A stretch of 64,000 nt of DNA from an uncultured Spirochaetota bacterium. GTDB lineage: Bacteria; Spirochaetota; Spirochaetia; SZUA-6; Fen-1364. The translations under genes and the position numbers were made by a program. Location of the stretch: the NCBI GenBank assembly GCA_963820525.1, contig CAWGAA010000001.1, forward strand, positions 2,048,001 through 2,112,000, read 5' to 3'. This document shows positions 1,933 through 10,043 of the stretch, one piece after another (position 1 is the stretch's first letter; each line of letters opens with the position of its first letter). The notes beneath the pieces are model-generated. The model worked only from the letters and a program-made list of their open reading frames with translations. It had not been told where the DNA came from and ran no database searches.

Positions 1933-3102
1933 ATGGCTTGGAAGCGCATCCTCATCATTGTGGCTGCGGTGGCAGTGGCGGCGTTTGCCGTCTGGCGAGT
2001 CTTTGTGGCAGTGCGCCCGGCAGGCCCGGTGGTCGGGCAAGCGACGGGTGTTCGCACGGCCGCGCCCGTGGCGGTGGAGATCACACCGGTCACACGCTCA
2101 ACGCTGCAGGACGCCGTGGAGTTCTCCGGAGTCCTGCAGTCCCGTTCCCGATTCGTCGTGTCCACAAAGGTTGCCGGCCGGCTGGAGCGTCTCCTCGTGC
2201 GGATTGGTGAGCGGGTCTCCCGTGGACAGCTCCTGGCCGAGCTGGAGGATGAGGAGTACCGGCAGGAGCTCGAACAGTCCCGTGCGGAGCAGGAGGTGGC
2301 GCAAGCCAACGTGGAAGCGGCGCGGATCAGCGCGGAGGCTTCCGCGCGCGAGCTTGAAAGAGTGCGCGTCCTCCAAGACAAGCAGATCGCCTCCGACACG
2401 GAGCTGGACAGCGCCGAGACTCAGTTGAGCAGAGCGCAGGTCACCCTCACCGTTTCCGAGGCGCAGCTTCGGCAGAAAGAGGTAGCGCTTTCAGCCGCGG
2501 AGCTGCGCGTCCAGCACACGCGGATCACCGCGCTCTGGGAGAACGGCGGCGGCCCGCGGGTGGTGGGAGAGCGTCTGGCGGAGCCGGGAGCGCTGCTTCG
2601 GGCGAACGACCCTGTGGTGTCTCTGCTGGAAACCGATCCGCTGGTGGCCCGGTTGCAGGTGCCCGAAGCGGTCTATCCACGGCTGCGACAGGGCTTGCGG
2701 GCACAGGTGCGCGCGCCGGCAATGCCGGGCCGCGCGTTTGCCGGCAGGCTTTCCACGGTGGCGCCTTTCCTCGATGAACGCACCGGGCAGGCGGAAGCGT
2801 GGGTGGAGATCGCCAACCCGGCAGGTGAGCTTGCCCCCGGGCTTGCCGTGCGCGTGAACCTGGAGTTCGGCCGGCTTGAGAACGTCGTTACTGTTCCCGC
2901 CGTCGCGATTGTCGAGCGCAAGGGGGAGAAAGGCGTGTTCCTTGTGGACCCCCAGAAGCCAATGGCGCGGTTTGTCCCCGTGCGCCCCGGTGCTGCGCAA
3001 GGCGAGCTGGTGCAGATCGTGCAGCCCGAGCTGTCGGGCAGCGTCGTGACCCTGGGCCAGCACCTGTTGGAGGACGGCGGCGCCGTGATACTGCCCAAAT
3101 GA
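1933..3102 (+). CDS. RND efflux periplasmic adaptor (membrane fusion protein)
   Basis: N-terminal anchor, lipoyl-like halves (KVAGRLERLLVRIGERVSRGQLLAEL), coiled coil; overlaps the permease start. Confidence 0.92.
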   Translation: MAWKRILIIVAAVAVAAFAVWRVFVAVRPAGPVVGQATGVRTAAPVAVEITPVTRSTLQDAVEFSGVLQSRSRFVVSTKVAGRLERLLVRIGERVSRGQLLAELEDEEYRQELEQSRAEQEVAQANVEAARISAEASARELERVRVLQDKQIASDTELDSAETQLSRAQVTLTVSEAQLRQKEVALSAAELRVQHTRITALWENGGGPRVVGERLAEPGALLRANDPVVSLLETDPLVARLQVPEAVYPRLRQGLRAQVRAPAMPGRAFAGRLSTVAPFLDERTGQAEAWVEIANPAGELAPGLAVRVNLEFGRLENVVTVPAVAIVERKGEKGVFLVDPQKPMARFVPVRPGAAQGELVQIVQPELSGSVVTLGQHLLEDGGAVILPK

Positions 3103-6100
3103 AAATCCCCCTTTTTACTGTCCGTCACCCGGTTCTCACTTCCATGATCGCCCTGATCGTCATCATCCTCGGGGTGATCGCGCTGCGGCAGCTTCCCCTG
3201 GACCTGATGCCCGACATCAGCTTCCCGGTGCTCTCGATCAACACCACCTATACAAATTCGAGCCCCCAAATCGTGGAGCAGCTCATCACCCGGCCCGTCG
3301 AGGAGGCCATGGGCGCCGTGCCCGGGGTGGAGCAGATCACCTCGGAATCCGCGGAGGGCTCGAGCGACGTGCGGATCTTTTTCGCCTGGGGCACCAACCT
3401 CGAGGCCGCGGCCAATGACGTGCGCGACAGGCTGGACCGCGTCATTCCGCGCCTGCCGGAGGACGCGGAGCGGCCGCGCCTTTTCAAGTTCGACCCGTCC
3501 AGCTTCCCCATCATGTTCCTCGGCTTGTACGGCAACGTGGACCCCGTGTACTTGCGCCGGCTCATCGACGAGCAGCTTACCTACCGCCTGGAGCGCATAG
3601 ACGGCGTGGCCTCCGTGGACATCTGGGGCGGGGTTGAGCGGGAAATCCAGGTGAACCTGCTGCCGGACCGCCTCCAGGTGCTGGGCCTCTCCGTGGACCA
3701 GGTGCTGTCCCGCATCAACGCGGCCAACCTGGAAAGTCCCGTGGGCGCCGTCACGGACGGCAGTTTCAGGCGATCTCTGCGCGCATCCGCCCTCTACGAG
3801 AATCTTGACCAGCTGCGCGACACCGTGGTTGCAGTCCGCGACGGGACGCCCATTGCCCTGCGCCAGGTGGCGGAGGTGGTGGACGGAAACGCGGAGGTCA
3901 CGCGCATCGCGCGCATCAATGGCCAGCCCGGCATTCGCATGTCGGTGAGCAAGCAGTCCGGCAGGAACACGGTGGAGGTGGCACGGCTGCTGCGGGCGGA
4001 GGTGGAGCGCATCCGCCAGGATTACCCGCAGATAGGGTTGATCGTGATCAACGACAGCTCCCGCTACATCCAAAATGCGCTCTCCAACGTCGGCACCTCC
4101 GCGTTGTACGGCGCCTTGATCGCGGCGGGGGTCCTCCTGTTCTTCCTTCGCAGCATGCGCAGCACCCTCATCATTTCGATATCCATTCCTTTCTCCATCA
4201 TCGCCACCTTTGTGCTCATGTACGCGAGCGGCTTCACCCTGAACGTCATGAGCCTGGGCGGACTGGCCATGGGCGTGGGCATGATGGTGGACAACTCCAT
4301 CGTGGTGCTTGAAAACAGCTACCGCCTGCGCCAGGCGGGACGACCGGCGGTGGAGGCCGCCGTGGAGGGGGCGGGCGAGGTGACCGCCGCCGTGGTGGCC
4401 AGCACCCTGACCACGCTGGTCGTGTTCCTGCCCCTCGTATTCACGCGGGGAATCTCCGGCATCATGTACAAGCAGCTTGCCATCGTTGTGAGCTTCTCCC
4501 TCATCGCCTCTTTAGTGTCCGCGCTGACTCTTGTGCCCATGATGTCCGCCCGGATGCTTGCCCGCCCGCTGGGTTCCGGCGGGGGCCGAATTGTCCAGAC
4601 GCTCGGCCGGGCCCAAGGCAAGATGGACCGGGTCTATGGATCCTTGCTGGACCGGGCCCTAAGACACCCGGGGGCCACCGTGGTTGCCGTGGCAGCCGGG
4701 CTTGCCGCCAGCCTGACCCTCGTGCCGCTCATCGGCTCTGAGCTCATGCCTGGATCAGACCAGGGGGAGGTGCGCATGAGCGGCGAGCTTGCGGTAGGGA
4801 CCCGCCTCGAGCTGACGGACCAGACCTTCCGCAGCCTGGAGGCGCGCACAAAAGAGGTGGTGCCGGAAGCCCAGACCATGCTTTCAAGCGTGGGCGGAGG
4901 GTTCCACGGATCCGGGAGCAGCACGGGGCAGATCAGCCTGACCCTCGTGCCCCGGAGCCAGAGGAGCCGCTCCGATGCCGAGATTGCGGAGGCCCTTCGC
5001 CGCCGGCTTTCCGGAACGCCGGGGGTGACCGTGCGCACCCGCACGAGCCAGAGCATGTTCATGCCGCGAATGGGCGGCTCTGGAGCAGAGCGCGTCCAGA
5101 TCGAAGTGCGCGGCCAGGACCTGGAGGCGGGCCGGGCCCTTGCCTTCCGGATCCTCGAGATCGTCCAGGAGGTGCCCGGGATCACGGACATTCTGTTCAG
5201 CCAGGAAGCAGGCGCCCCCGAGGATCTGCTGGTGGTGGACCGGCGCCGGGTGGCGGAGCTTGACCTCACGATGCAGCAGGTCACGAGCCTCCTGCGCACG
5301 CTGGTAGGCGGCACTCAGGCCGGCATCTTCCGTGAGGCCGCAAGCGAATCCCCCATCATGGTGCGGCTGGCCGAGCAGGATCCGTTCGACCTCCAGAGCC
5401 TGCTTTCCCTCCCCGTCATCAACGGGCAGGGCCAGGCCGTGCCCCTGAACAACGTTATCAGCGTCCGGCGTCAGATCGGACCCACGGTCATCGAGCGCAC
5501 GGACCAGGAGCGGATGATCACGCTGCTGGCCAACACAAGCGGCCGGGACGTGGGCTCCATTGTCGCTGATGCGCGCCAGAGGCTGCGTTCGCTTCCGGTG
5601 CCATCGGGGCTGTCGGTGCGCTTCAGCGGGGACTGGGAGGAGCAGAACGAGAGCTTCCGGGAGCTTGCCATCAGCATCGCCTTGTCCCTGCTTCTGATTT
5701 ACATGGTCATGGCAGGTCTGTACGAGTCTCTGCGAGACCCGTTCATCATCATGTTCTCCATCCCGCTGACCGCCATCGGAGTGCTTCTCATGCTGTTCCT
5801 GACCCGCACTACCTTCAATATCCAGACCTGGATCGGTGTGCTCATGTTGGGCGGCATCGTGGTGAACAATGCCATCCTGCTCGTGGACACCATGAACCTG
5901 CTTCGCCGGCGCGACGGGATGAAACTGATGGAGGCGGTGAGCGAGGCCGGACGCCGCAGGCTCAGGCCGGTGCTCATGACCTCACTGACGACGATTGTCG
6001 GCCTGCTTCCCCTGGCACTGGGGCTGGGCGAGGGAGGCGAGCTTCAGGCCCCGCTTGCGCGTACCGTGATCGGCGGCCTTGCCAGCGGCACCTTCATCAC

Positions 6101-6173: not shown

Positions 6174-7687
6174 GCCGGGCCGTACTTTTGCGCAGAATGC
6201 GGCCCCTGCTGGCTGCAGCTCTCCTCCTGGCCGGCCGCACGCTGCCGGCGCAGGCTCAGGCCTCCGATTCTCCGTCTGCCGGCGCGGTGCAGCCCGCTGA
6301 TTCCTCTTCTGCCGGCGCCATGCAGCCCGCGCCCCGGGAACTCGCGCTGTCCCTCCAGGAAGCGGTGCTTACGGCGCTCGAGCACAACCAGTCGCTTCGG
6401 GTCGAGCGTCTCGGGCCCGAGCTGAAGGCCACGAATCTGAAGGAGGAGGAGGGCGCCCTGGACCCTGTCCTGGCCGCGGATGCCGAGCAGATCGTTGCCG
6501 GCTCCCCGCCCGGCGTCTCGGCGGGCAGCGGCGCCGAGGCCGGCCTTTCCCTGAGCTTCTCCACCGGCACTTCGCTCAGCACCTCCGTGTCCGCCGGCTG
6601 GGGAGACTCGTGGGCGGCGGGAGCGGACCTCGAGGTGACGCAGGCCCTGCTGGCCGGCGGCAACGTGGCAGCCAACCGCGCGCGGGTGGAGCAGGCCCGC
6701 CTGGATCTCTTCTCCTCAAGGTACGAGCTTCGCGGCTTTGCGGAGTCTCTGGCTGCCGACGTGGAGTCCGCCTACTGGGGCCACTACCTCGCCCTTCGCC
6801 AGCGCGACATCTACCAGGAGTCCCTGGGACTGGCCGAGCGCCAGCTTGAGGAAGCCCAGGTCCGAATGCAGGTGGGGCGGATCGCGGCAATCGAGCTTGC
6901 AGCCCCGCGGGCGGAGGTCACCTCCCGCCGGGAGGCCCTGCGGCAAGGTGAAAAGAACGTGCAGTCCACCCGGCAGCAGCTGCTCATGCTGGTGAACCCG
7001 GCAGACACCGGCTTGGACTCCCCACTGCGGCTGGTGGACACGCCGGCACCGCCGACAGGCGCGCTGGGCGATGCCTCCGCGCACGTGTCTCTGGGCCTCC
7101 GCCAGAGGCCGGATCTCGCGCAGGCCCGGCTTGCCCTGCAGCGCGGCGAGCTTGAGGTCGTGCGCACCCAGGCAGGGCTCCTGCCCCGACTGGATCTTTT
7201 CGTGCGGCTGGGCGGCACGGGCTACGCCTCCTCTTTCGGCGGTTCTGTGGTCGGTATTGCCGATGAGCCGTATGCCAGCGCCGGCCTGAGCTTTTTGATG
7301 CCGCTGGGAAACCGCGCGGCCGAGGCGCGCGCCGAACGGGCCCGGCTGACCAAGGCGCAGGCCGATGAAGCCCTGAAGGGGATGGAGCGCAGCGTGGAGG
7401 CGGACATCAGAAACGCCTGGCGGGAGGCTGAGTTCTCCGCCGGGGGGATCGCGGCCAGCGCCGAGCTTCGCGGCCTGCAACAGGAGAAGCTTGCCGCGGA
7501 AGTGGAGAAATTCAGAAACGGCACCTCTACGACCTACCTGGTTGCCCAGGCCCAGCGGGACCTGCTGGCAGCCCAGCTGGGCGAGGCTCAGGCCACGGTG
7601 CAGTACCTCCTGGCGATGGTGACGCTCTACCGGCTTGAAGGCTCGCTTCTCGAGCGCAGGGGAATTGCCGCGGAACGGGTGGAATAG
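6170..7687 (+). CDS. TolC family outer membrane efflux protein
   Basis: Signal peptide, LSLQEAVLTALEHN, two OEP repeats; coupled to the permease by an ATGA overlap. Confidence 0.9.
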   Translation: MSRAVLLRRMRPLLAAALLLAGRTLPAQAQASDSPSAGAVQPADSSSAGAMQPAPRELALSLQEAVLTALEHNQSLRVERLGPELKATNLKEEEGALDPVLAADAEQIVAGSPPGVSAGSGAEAGLSLSFSTGTSLSTSVSAGWGDSWAAGADLEVTQALLAGGNVAANRARVEQARLDLFSSRYELRGFAESLAADVESAYWGHYLALRQRDIYQESLGLAERQLEEAQVRMQVGRIAAIELAAPRAEVTSRREALRQGEKNVQSTRQQLLMLVNPADTGLDSPLRLVDTPAPPTGALGDASAHVSLGLRQRPDLAQARLALQRGELEVVRTQAGLLPRLDLFVRLGGTGYASSFGGSVVGIADEPYASAGLSFLMPLGNRAAEARAERARLTKAQADEALKGMERSVEADIRNAWREAEFSAGGIAASAELRGLQQEKLAAEVEKFRNGTSTTYLVAQAQRDLLAAQLGEAQATVQYLLAMVTLYRLEGSLLERRGIAAERVE

Positions 7688-7688
7688 C

Positions 7689-7955
7689 TCAAAACCCTAG
7701 CCGTCCTGCTTTTTTCAAAGCCAACAAAGCATAGAGAGTCATCCACTTATTGGCGGCTCCACGATCGCCAACTTTCCACAGACACTGGGTTGGTGCCCAT
7801 TCCAGAATGAATCTTCCTTCTCTATCAGGAGCCTAGAAGCTTCCATGCACGATCAAGCCTTGGCTCATTCCCATATCCCATTCTGCTTAAATGGTACAGG
7901 ACTTCCACCAGGCCAGCCCGCCAGTGGAACGGAAATATCATTGTCTGAACGTCCT
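7689..7955 (-). pseudogene. 3' part of the terpene-cyclase/prenyltransferase-fold gene split by IS110; additional frameshift near 7830
   Basis: Hand translation DVQTMIFPFHWRAGLVEVLYHLSRMGYGNEPRLDRAWKLL, then after a shift DREGRFILEW...NKWMTLYALLALK*. It continues ...RKLVNK of the 9356-10043 part in frame. Confidence 0.8.
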
Positions 7956-7968
7956 ACTATGATGCCCG

Positions 7969-9066
7969 TCAAGCAGGAATCTTCGATTCCTCCTCCGTCC
8001 CACGAATCCTCACCCAGTCTTTGAGTTTGCGCTGGTACAGTTGCTCCTCCTTCCATCGATACGGCGTGTTCGACAGCAGCATCCTGCGCATCATGCCAAA
8101 GGTCTTTCGCAAGACCGCAATTCGCGCTCGACCGTACCCTTTGCGTTGGACAAGCTCCCGGAAGAACTCTCCCAACAGCGGCGATGAATCCGCCAAGTGG
8201 AGCACAGCCTCGGTGAACAACGTGCGCGCCAGGCACCGACTGCGCCGATTCAGTCGACCCACGTGCGTGGTGCCTCCGCTGGAGCGCACAGTCGGCACCA
8301 CCCCCAGGTAAGCCAACAAAGCCCGCAGGCAGCGAAATCGGCGGATATCTCCGACCTCCGACAGAAACCCCAGCGCCAAGAGCGGAGTCACCCCGCGGAT
8401 CCCGATGAGCACCAGCACTTGCTGTTCGAAGGGCTTTCCCGCGCGGTAGATCTCCCGCTGCAGACTCTTCTTCTGCTCTTTAAGCTGGGCAAGAATCCCA
8501 AGGCTCATCGTGATGCTGAACAGACTGGCCGGGGAAAGCTCAAGGGCGGCAATCAGCTGCAGCCCCACCGTGGGATTGTCCACTATCCGGACGCCGAGCT
8601 TACGGTCAGTGATGCCATTCTCGACCAGCACGCTCTGCGCCTGCGCCTTCAATTGGCGGCTCTGATTGTTGAGAATCTGCCAGTGGGAGAACAGCCGCCG
8701 CAACTCCCGCACCTCAGGGGTCGGCTGCCAGACCTCGGGCAGCACCAGCTCCCCACTTTGAGCCGCTGTCCACAGCCCCAGCGACAGTGCCCCCGCATCA
8801 TGGCGATCCGTCTTGTGCCAAGAGTCGCGGATGATGCGAAACCGATACGGGTCGATGACGACGCAGCGAGCTCCTCGGCGCTGAATCCGCTCCGCCCACC
8901 AGAAGCTCCCAGAGCAGCTCTCCAACGCCACCGAGTCCTGCGGCCCAAGGGTCGCTACATAGCCGGCGGTCTCCACCCTGGCCAGATAGCGCACCTCATG
9001 GCCAGCCTCGTCGCGAATCGACACGGCGGCACTGCCTTTGTGTAGGTCAAGCCCGTGATACCTCAT
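7969..9066 (-). CDS. IS110 family DEDD transposase/recombinase
   Basis: MRYHGLDLHK, ALES, KTDRHDA (DEDD), C-terminal GVVPTVRSSGG serine motif; GGAGG RBS. Confidence 0.95.
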   Translation of the reverse strand: MRYHGLDLHKGSAAVSIRDEAGHEVRYLARVETAGYVATLGPQDSVALESCSGSFWWAERIQRRGARCVVIDPYRFRIIRDSWHKTDRHDAGALSLGLWTAAQSGELVLPEVWQPTPEVRELRRLFSHWQILNNQSRQLKAQAQSVLVENGITDRKLGVRIVDNPTVGLQLIAALELSPASLFSITMSLGILAQLKEQKKSLQREIYRAGKPFEQQVLVLIGIRGVTPLLALGFLSEVGDIRRFRCLRALLAYLGVVPTVRSSGGTTHVGRLNRRSRCLARTLFTEAVLHLADSSPLLGEFFRELVQRKGYGRARIAVLRKTFGMMRRMLLSNTPYRWKEEQLYQRKLKDWVRIRGTEEESKIPA

Positions 9067-9084
9067 CAGTCCTCCCTTCGGCTC

Positions 9085-9340
9085 GGATCTCCACAGCGGA
9101 GGAGGAGACTCCCGTGAAGGCACTGATGGCTCCACTCTACTATCCAGCATCGCCTCTGGCGTGCTATGTTGGTGGTGCGAAACGGCGGTAGGTGGCCGGC
9201 CAAACTTGTTATCGTGGTCGTCGTTGACGCCACAGGACGTTGACGGCCATCTACCGCGCTCCTTTCCCCGCTCGGTACCGAGTTGTCACGCAGTATACAG
9301 CCACCCACCACCTCGTCCATCAAAGCCTTCTCGGCCGACG
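9085..9340 (-). ncRNA. Predicted bridge RNA of the IS110 element (ends approximate)
   Basis: Stem 9185-9198/9244-9257 encloses guides AACGUCCU and AACAAG, which match both sides of the actual target. A second stem-loop at 9129-9178 carries AUAGUAG, matching the donor junction. Confidence 0.8.
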
Positions 9341-9355
9341 TGCATCATATCAACT

Positions 9356-10043
9356 TGTTTACCAACTTCCGTGGATCCCTGCGTTTATAGATTCCTCCTC
9401 GATCAAGGAAGTATTCAATGAGACTGCGGCAGCTTTGATGCTTCCAGCACGTAGGCCCTATCTCGGCAAACGCTGCAAGCGCCTTGAATGATCCACGTAT
9501 GCAGCTCTTCGTCTTGTTTGGTTGGGCCTTGGGTTCATGCATTTCACAGAGATATCCACCATCGGCCCTTACTGATTTTTCAAGAAGTTCGATGCTGCGC
9601 TGCAGACGCGGGTCTTTTCGATAGCCCAGCATAATGAAGGTTCGGATGTTGTACCCGTACAGACAGGAGAAGTGCTTGTACCAGTCACCATCTTCTTGTT
9701 GGAGACCAAGATATCGCTCCGCGGCGAGCTCTACCTTTGGGTGCGTTCTATCAAGGCCAAGCTCCGCGAGATAGGCCAGGCAGAAGTGGGTTGTGGCAAA
9801 GCTGCCGTACTCCGCGCCGTCTCCGACCGTCTTCTGTGTCCTTGGATTCGTCTGCAGCCAATACCCTTTTGGATGCATTCTTTCGAATAGCCGAATCACC
9901 GCCGCCGATTGAGCGAGTTTTTGACGCGCTGCAATTACTTCTGGATTATTGGCAGGCACATCTGATAGTTCCGTCAGCGTCCGATATCTAGCGGAAGGAT
10001 CTGAGGGATCGAGAAGCCAAGTCAGTATCGGATTAGCTTTCAT
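9356..10043 (-). pseudogene. 5' part of a terpenoid-cyclase/prenyltransferase-repeat (alpha-alpha toroid) protein gene interrupted by IS110
   Basis: WLLDPSDPSARYRTLTEL, QQEDGDW and RADGGYLC QW-like repeats; truncated exactly at the IS110 core. Confidence 0.75.

Follow-up and report, generated by a model that had tools for sequence, protein, structure and literature searches.

The minus strand of the 64,000-nt stretch of Spirochaetota DNA analysed here (the window) carries, at positions 9336-9110, what is very probably (we put the probability at about 0.9) the gene of a bridge or seek RNA that guides the DEDD recombinase encoded downstream of it, the two forming a 1400-bp IS110-family element inside a squalene-cyclase-like gene. 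The kind of RNA and its mechanism are already known (bridge RNA or seekRNA, since 2024), and the mixed layout of the element is a variant of them: the polarity of the guides and the subterminal repeats of 8-10 bp are IS1111-like, and the position of the RNA is IS110-like.

The insertion sequence and its empty site

Positions 7954-9353 of the window were confirmed to be a 1400-bp insertion sequence of the IS110 family. Its parts outside the RNA, and the target sequences on both sides of it, are the following:

7954-9353 (minus): insertion sequence, 1400 bp including one copy of the core dinucleotide; the homology of relatives begins and stops at these borders
9354-9359 (minus): left target AACA (9359-9356) and core AG (9355-9354), equal to the 3′ side of loop 1
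9342-9349 (minus): left subterminal inverted repeat TATGATGC, kept in 12 of 12 aligned relatives
7969-9066 (minus): recombinase gene, 365 aa; Pfam Transposase_20 at 7.7e-15, DEDD_Tnp_IS110 at 0.0037, below the cut-off
7967-7972 (minus): TTGACG, a −35-like hexamer at the right end, overlapping the stop codon of the recombinase gene
7954-7965 (minus): right subterminal repeat GCATCATA (7965-7958), followed by GT and core AG (7955-7954), as read from the sequence
7948-7953 (minus): right target GACGTT, as read from the sequence

The borders are exact to the base because they are fixed by contigs of the empty site, which were found in two metagenome runs (X4 and X5) from two studies. A 1781-nt contig of run X5 joins position 7953 to 9354 and skips exactly 1400 bases, with two letters that fit either side of the joint. 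A contig of run X4 covers 7300-7955 and then continues with the letters following 9355, i.e. it represents the site without the element.

The host frame is still open after scripted removal of 7954-9353, and the restored frame aligned with a homologue across the junction (residues 3-272, 27% identity, E 5e-15). The preliminary description of this DNA had given the empty target as gAACGTC-CT-TGTTt on the plus strand; the X4 and X5 contigs and the restored host frame prove this reading right to the base. A search for an orthologue of the host gene carrying the empty site returned only homologues of 24-36% identity. The element, which interrupts the squalene-cyclase-like gene, is present in a single copy within its genome.

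A further irregularity was noted in the host gene itself. With the element removed, a stop is met after ...LLGS and the gene continues in the +1 frame (about 7827), and the X4 empty-site contig contains 5 extra bases behind 7827, with which the host frame runs on. The window therefore contains either a 5-base frameshift besides the insertion or an assembly error near 7827.

In minus-strand sense, the left junction is ...aaaca-AG|ttgaTATGATGC..., with the core at 9355-9354 and the left end starting at 9353 (ttga precedes the subterminal repeat), and the right junction reads ...GCATCATAgt-AG|gacgtt..., with the core at 7955-7954. The core AG is thus present at both junctions and corresponds to the two letters shared at the X5 joint; no other duplication was found. 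In the window, the two copies of the 8-bp inverted repeat are set back from the ends of the element by 4 nt on the left and by 2 nt on the right; in the relatives, the subterminal repeats are 10 bp long (TATGATGCGC and GCGCATCATA).

The first six bases of the left subterminal repeat (9349-9344) are TATGAT, a −10-like hexamer. When the ends are joined through one core, TTGACG and TATGAT are separated by 17 nt, and both hexamers are kept in relatives. A candidate for an internal promoter, TGGACG-16-TATACT (9319-9292, minus strand, 9/12), was rejected as unconvincing, one being found where 0.4 are expected.

The C-terminal part of the recombinase is matched by PF02371 (Transposase_20), and the string GVVPTVRSSG at residue 255 fits the motif G--P----SG as stated in section 6 of Siddiquee 2024 (PMC11187229). 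The N-terminal, RuvC-like DEDD domain (PF01548) scored 17.5 bits against a curated cut-off of 29 bits. Residues D7, E49, D87, D90, S262 and S263 are invariant among nine relatives. The four acidic residues stand opposite the D/E/D/D columns of IS621 in an alignment that is weak and non-significant, and the SG motif of the recombinase aligns to that of IS621.

Predicted fold of the 5′ non-coding RNA

The 5′ non-coding end of the element comprises 287 nt, and only 15 nt follow the stop codon at the right. The features of the RNA are listed in transcript order:

9317-9334 (minus): 5′ strand of the predicted terminal stem P0, pairing with 9129-9112 in the MFE fold; RNAalifold columns 30-51/256-277, two compensatory pairs
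9299-9312 (minus): ALT arm GGUGGUGGGUGGCU, competing 5′ partner of 9197-9184
9288-9295 (minus): conserved UAUAC-UG segment, pairing with 9259-9252 when ALT forms (5 pairs, 93% paired)
9244-9257 (minus): 5′ arm of stem P1, pairing with 9198-9185
9234-9241 (minus): 5′ side of loop 1, AACGUCCU, reverse complement of core plus right target, pairing with the top strand (8/8)
9213-9234 (minus): inner hairpin P2 of loop 1, 94.9% paired
9205-9210 (minus): AACAAG on the 3′ side of loop 1, identical with the left target and core, pairing with the bottom strand (6/6)
9185-9198 (minus): 3′ arm common to P1 and ALT, according to pairing counts
9131-9181 (minus): loop 2 domain, closed by P3 (9181-9177 with 9135-9131; 93% paired)
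9167-9176 (minus): 5′ side of loop 2, ACCACCAACA, incompletely complementary to core plus left end
9145-9166 (minus): inner hairpin P4 of loop 2, 94% paired, with compensatory changes in 6 of 8 pairs
9137-9143 (minus): AUAGUAG on the 3′ side of loop 2, identical with the right end and core

The segment 9335-9067 (269 nt) folds at −117.8 kcal/mol (MFE z-score −3.65), and none of 200 shuffled sequences folded as well. The predicted architecture consists of (i) a terminal stem, (ii) a first domain with an internal loop around 9234-9213, and (iii) a second domain (9181-9131) with an internal loop around 9166-9145.

In the fold common to 27 sequences (34 pairs), 92.3% of the cells are paired, compared with 83.6% after shuffling and 27-54% when the partners are slid. 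Seventeen of the 34 pairs have changed on both sides, and the observed values were reached in 0 of 500 shuffles; since alignment A5 was made to fit the model and its members are related, these counts are generous towards the structure. Covariation among homologues had been proposed in the preliminary description as a check, and it bears the helices out by compensatory changes (those 17 pairs).

A covariance model (R1) built from 11 sequences was run over the window and the fetched loci; at E up to 0.0003 it gave 31 matches, all on the recombinase strand and 5′ of the protein match, and 27 of these make up the family fold above. We assigned the RNA to the minus strand because the family fold contains many conserved G-U pairs and because R1 scores 152.5 bits on the recombinase strand of the window, compared with 19.2 bits on the other strand. 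A search of positions 7800-9500 against Rfam 15 revealed no matching family, the three matches obtained being at chance level (E above 2). Of the 20 sequencing runs listed as containing this DNA, none is recorded as an RNA run.

The preliminary description had closed the first loop with a 14-bp stem. Segments 9257-9244 and 9198-9185 do pair over 14 positions, with a single A.C mismatch, but this stem (P1) is only one of two conserved pairings of its 3′ arm. The arm has two mutually exclusive 5′ partners that covary with it, P1 (9257-9244) and ALT (9312-9299). In P1, 80% of the cells are paired and 7 of 14 pairs have changed on both sides; the main helix of ALT is better paired (92.5% of cells), with 7 of 11 pairs changed on both sides. 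These counts were made on a MAFFT alignment fitted to neither structure. At column pair 103-186 of alignment A6, P1 is paired in all 23 sequences, by five types of pair, and 23 of 27 relatives have the ALT arm upstream, at a constant distance.

When ALT is formed, the released P1 arm pairs with the UAUAC-UG segment. The hairpin closed by P1 (9257-9185) is 73 nt long, whereas ALT requires a longer transcript. Judged from these pairing patterns, a possible role of the two helices is to distinguish a precursor from a processed form, or to act as a switch. If they do form a switch, it would add a regulatory layer to these RNAs for which the literature compared here contains no description.

A hairpin of 16 bp is predicted next to the recombinase gene (9068-9110, minus strand), in which CUCCUCC is paired with the recombinase Shine-Dalgarno sequence GGGAGGA in a single-sequence fold. 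As modelled, this hairpin could hold back translation of the recombinase.

Guides in the two loops and their variation among relatives

The four guide strings named in the preliminary description lie exactly where it had placed them: AACGUCCU at 9241-9234, AACAAG at 9210-9205, AUAGUAG at 9143-9137 and ACCAACA at 9173-9167. By our arithmetic, the chance of finding the exact 8-, 6- and 7-mer in 287 nt is about 0.4%, 7% and 2%, respectively. The guide matches go beyond chance because such exact matches are improbable and, decisively, because the sequences of the loops change together with the flanks in the relatives.

For this comparison, 28 of the 31 elements were curated; L073, L076 and L085 were dropped, as the end motif was missing or the RNA disrupted. 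The left end was located by the TATGAT motif and the right end by ATCATAGT, which yielded left flanks for 26 elements and right flanks for 18 (17 distinct events).

The 3′ side of loop 1 matches the left flank of its own element at 4.35 of 6 non-core positions on average, compared with 2.11 for the flanks of other elements. The corresponding values for the 5′ side and the right flank are 5.06 of 7 and 2.48. The summed match was 63/96 for the 16 distinct left guides and 68/91 for the 13 distinct right guides, sums reached in 0 of 20000 permutations in both cases, although these figures are no true probabilities, the relatives being kin. Covariation of guide and target had been set as a test beforehand, and its outcome was positive for both sides of loop 1.

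The agreement extends to 10 contiguous bases for the right guide of L044 and to 9 for that of L049. At the other extreme, L054, L051, L047, L070 and L071 match one of the guides in only 1-3 positions, and the lowest scores with an element's own flanks were 1-2 of 6 (left) and 1-2 of 7 (right). The poorly fitting insertions may represent off-target events or later changes. The rules that can be read from these data are a guide of 8-10 nt for the right flank, a guide of 6-7 nt for the left flank, and a core of AG or GG.

The guides of the window recur in L058, a decayed copy in another genome, where the left match is better (8/8). This copy (2196-3600) combines the target guides of the window with different flanks. 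Its left flank GACATAACAAG is also found in L050, whose right guide would fit the right flank of L058; the two sites may be closely related targets, or one conserved gene may have been used repeatedly.

The final five bases of the right end, followed by the core, recur on the 3′ side of loop 2. The 7/7 match of AUAGUAG to the donor junction, claimed for the window, recurs as such in 17 of the 18 elements whose right end was found. The 5′ side fits less well: it matches at 5 of 8 positions in the window, the family mean is 4.3 of 6 non-core positions for own ends compared with 3.3 for the ends of others, and it seldom pairs with the core. The preliminary description had likewise found only a partial match (5/7) for ACCAACA on this side. 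Because the version present in L058 (ATCAACA) has one more match, the 5/7 found for the window comes down to a single base difference. According to the part of Durrant 2024 (PMC11208160) that deals with the donor guides, one of those of IS621 also pairs discontiguously.

The core provides a link between the two loops. Where AG is replaced by GG, the exchange is seen in four places at once, at both junctions and in the guides for target and donor. The left junction agrees with both of these guides in 23 of 26 elements, and the right junction with the donor guide in 17 of 18. The assignment of loop 1 to the target and of loop 2 to the donor, made in the preliminary description, therefore withstood the comparison with relatives: loop 1 varies with the flanks, loop 2 follows the right end and the core on its 3′ side, and the helices carry compensatory changes.

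By analogy with experiments on IS621, ISEc11 and ISEc21, the element would be excised as a circle, and its joined ends would place TTGACG 17 nt from TATGAT, creating a promoter that could drive the RNA and the recombinase gene. The RNA would then bring target and donor junction together in one synapse by pairing with both strands of each, and strands would be exchanged at the core, which is AG in the element sense and CT on the other strand.

Layout in comparison with known systems, and spread of the relatives

The element shares several properties with IS621, as described in Durrant 2024 (PMC11208160; see also Hiraizumi 2024, PMC11208158). In both, the RNA is encoded in a long left end upstream of the recombinase. 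It has a target loop followed by a donor loop, both of them internal loops; each loop reads the two strands, and each pairing takes in the core. One imperfect donor guide, a promoter (here a predicted one) spanning the circle junction, and a recombinase with a Transposase_20 domain, the SG motif and, in our element probably, a DEDD domain are further common features.

The element differs from IS621 in several respects. The order within the loops is reversed (the guide order given for IS621 in the relevant part of Durrant 2024 is opposite to that of the window), the core is AG or GG in the element sense instead of CT, the subterminal repeats comprise 8-10 bp instead of 2-3 bp, and an additional, alternative closing helix is present. 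From the viewpoint of the RNA, AACGTC-CT-TGTT is the target sequence, and its core is then CT, like that of IS621. The proteins are very distant: phmmer with the single protein against the PDB gave no match at E up to 0.01, and a profile of nine relatives reached only 23.1 bits with IS621 and 21.4 bits with ISCro4, in both cases over the C-terminal domain only.

With the seekRNAs of the IS1111 group (ISEc11, ISPa11, ISKpn4 and ISPst6), the RNA shares the order in which the complement of the top strand precedes (5′) the match to the bottom strand, together with subterminal repeats, which lie within 7-17 bp there, as far as these are set out in Siddiquee 2024 (PMC11187229). The short seekRNAs of 74-96 nt given in that text are close in size to the 73-nt target hairpin closed by P1. 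In contrast to the element described here, IS1111 elements have their non-coding region downstream of the gene for the transposase, and the donor loop of the window is a simple internal loop. The transposases of the group are 330-350 aa long in the same account, compared with 365 aa here, and the identity to IS5075 is 26%.

Two elements mentioned in Siddiquee 2024 are of special relevance. ISMtsp17, a relative of IS1111 that has an upstream non-coding region (section 6), resembles our element in combining this position with IS1111 features, a comparison based on its one-sentence description. A literature search for ISMtsp17 returned only Siddiquee 2024 and its preprint, and this was the sole printed precedent found for IS1111 features with an upstream region. 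ISEc21 of the IS110 family likewise has an upstream non-coding region, and its transposase belongs to the 345-385 aa size class; in its seekRNA, however, the match to the bottom strand comes first, whereas the complement of the top strand comes first here, going by the sections on ISEc21.

The preliminary description had stated that the core and guide order is flipped relative to IS621. The flip is real and holds for both loops, but it is the order of the IS1111 seekRNAs (Siddiquee 2024) and not new in itself. The same description had pointed to a combination of IS1111-like subterminal repeats with a 5′ non-coding RNA, and this also stands, with repeats of 8-10 bp and an RNA upstream of the recombinase. 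A 2026 review, in the part that treats the layouts, still distinguishes two: in the IS110 layout the RNA is upstream and its bottom-strand guide precedes the other, and in the IS1111 layout the RNA is downstream and the top-strand guide leads. We did not find the mixed layout described in the consulted passages of Durrant 2024 (main text), Siddiquee 2024 or the 2026 review; Supplementary Table 5 of Durrant 2024 may include ISfinder elements that combine these features.

The profile of nine relatives scored 49.5 bits with IS5075 of the IS1111 group (positions 4-322; 26% identity over residues 5-310), 84 bits with an Agrobacterium sequence, and 131-132 bits, over the full length, with a 413-aa transposase of Rhodococcus annotated as 'IS110 family'. 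Compared by bit scores only, the protein does not settle whether the element belongs to the IS110 or to the IS1111 sub-group.

The weak full-length likeness to IS5075 (49.5 bits over 4-322, 26% identity), the repeats of 8-10 bp and the leading position of the top-strand complement could all be explained if the element were a true member of the IS1111 family whose RNA gene has moved upstream, and which would then represent no separate lineage. ISMtsp17, as named in Siddiquee 2024 (PMC11187229), would be a precedent for such a move. We nevertheless consider this origin rather unlikely, as the Rhodococcus 'IS110 family' protein of 413 aa scores 131-132 bits compared with 50 bits for IS5075, and the length of 365 aa falls outside the 330-350 aa of IS1111. 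Much less credible still is the view that the RNA is an ordinary IS621-type bridge RNA and the flip a product of misplaced borders or of the wrong strand. The target loop follows the right flank with its 5′ side and the left flank with its 3′ side (26 left and 17 right junction events), opposite to what is reported in Durrant 2024. The upstream position of the RNA and the CT core on the plus strand do agree with IS621, but the borders are base-exact from the empty-site contigs, the strand of the RNA is set by the G-U pairs and by 152 bits compared with 19, and the repeats measure 8-10 bp, not 2-3 bp.

The subterminal guides of IS200/IS605 elements operate through a single-stranded DNA mechanism, and G-T pairs would be tolerated in a folded DNA as well, so the guides might conceivably act as single-stranded DNA rather than RNA. 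We regard this as highly improbable: the predicted promoter reconstituted at the junction would read into the structure, and its two ends are held together by a long terminal stem, a feature of stable RNAs. Moreover, this recombinase family uses RNA in every tested case described in the consulted parts of Durrant 2024 and Siddiquee 2024.

Returning to a bridge or seek RNA of mixed layout as the preferred reading, the arrangement would correspond to an IS621-type element whose end junction has been inverted relative to the RNA-recombinase cassette. We tentatively suggest, at odds somewhat below even, that the clade, which is centred on Spirochaetota, constitutes a third layout of the IS110 family and possibly an intermediate between IS110 and IS1111, in which the bistable closing stem could tie the form of the RNA (full-length or 73-nt) to its activity. 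The polarity of the guides and the position of the RNA are in any case separable, which bears on how the IS110 and IS1111 groups arose from each other. Bridge and seek RNAs are under development as programmable recombination tools, and the element offers a distant recombinase-RNA pair, which may be reprogrammable, as the preliminary description had proposed.

Matches to the recombinase were present in 29 of 61 related genomes. Most of the 46 loci obtained from public genome contigs come from Spirochaetota MAGs; Planctomycetes, Dehalococcoidia and other groups contributed a few. Among 151 genomes sampled within the phylum, R1 matched in 8, one of them being that of the window. This genome contains 9 Transposase_20 matches, this locus among them, and R1 gave no match at the other 8 loci, which include a decayed relative of 43% identity (C1:1654900-1655931).

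The best-scoring annotated relative is located on a Rhodococcus plasmid (L092, 935-2591) and has an upstream non-coding region of 260 nt. Its ends, when joined, place TTGACG 17 nt from TATGAA, the 4-bp repeat GTAC is present at both junctions, and four other plasmid records contain empty sites. ATCCGTA, which repeats the right end and core of L092, lies on the 3′ side of a hairpin, placed as is the donor guide of the window. A search for target guides in L092 revealed no match of 6 nt or more to its own flanks.

A weak R1-like RNA (17.6 bits, E 0.005) was observed in L014 (2134-2265, minus strand) directly upstream of a recombinase gene whose product is 31% identical to ours; it contains ACCAACAA and GAAUAG in the expected places.

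Several relatives, namely L045/L046 (about 5419-5560), L050 (4359-4410) and L054 (4360-4500), have the right end (TTGAC...GCGCATCATAGTAG) two or three times in tandem. In these elements, 250-1400 bp of extra DNA separate a decayed right-end-like site, found just after the recombinase gene, from the true end, an arrangement that recalls the modular circles of ISPpu9 as outlined in the part of PMC12288879 consulted.
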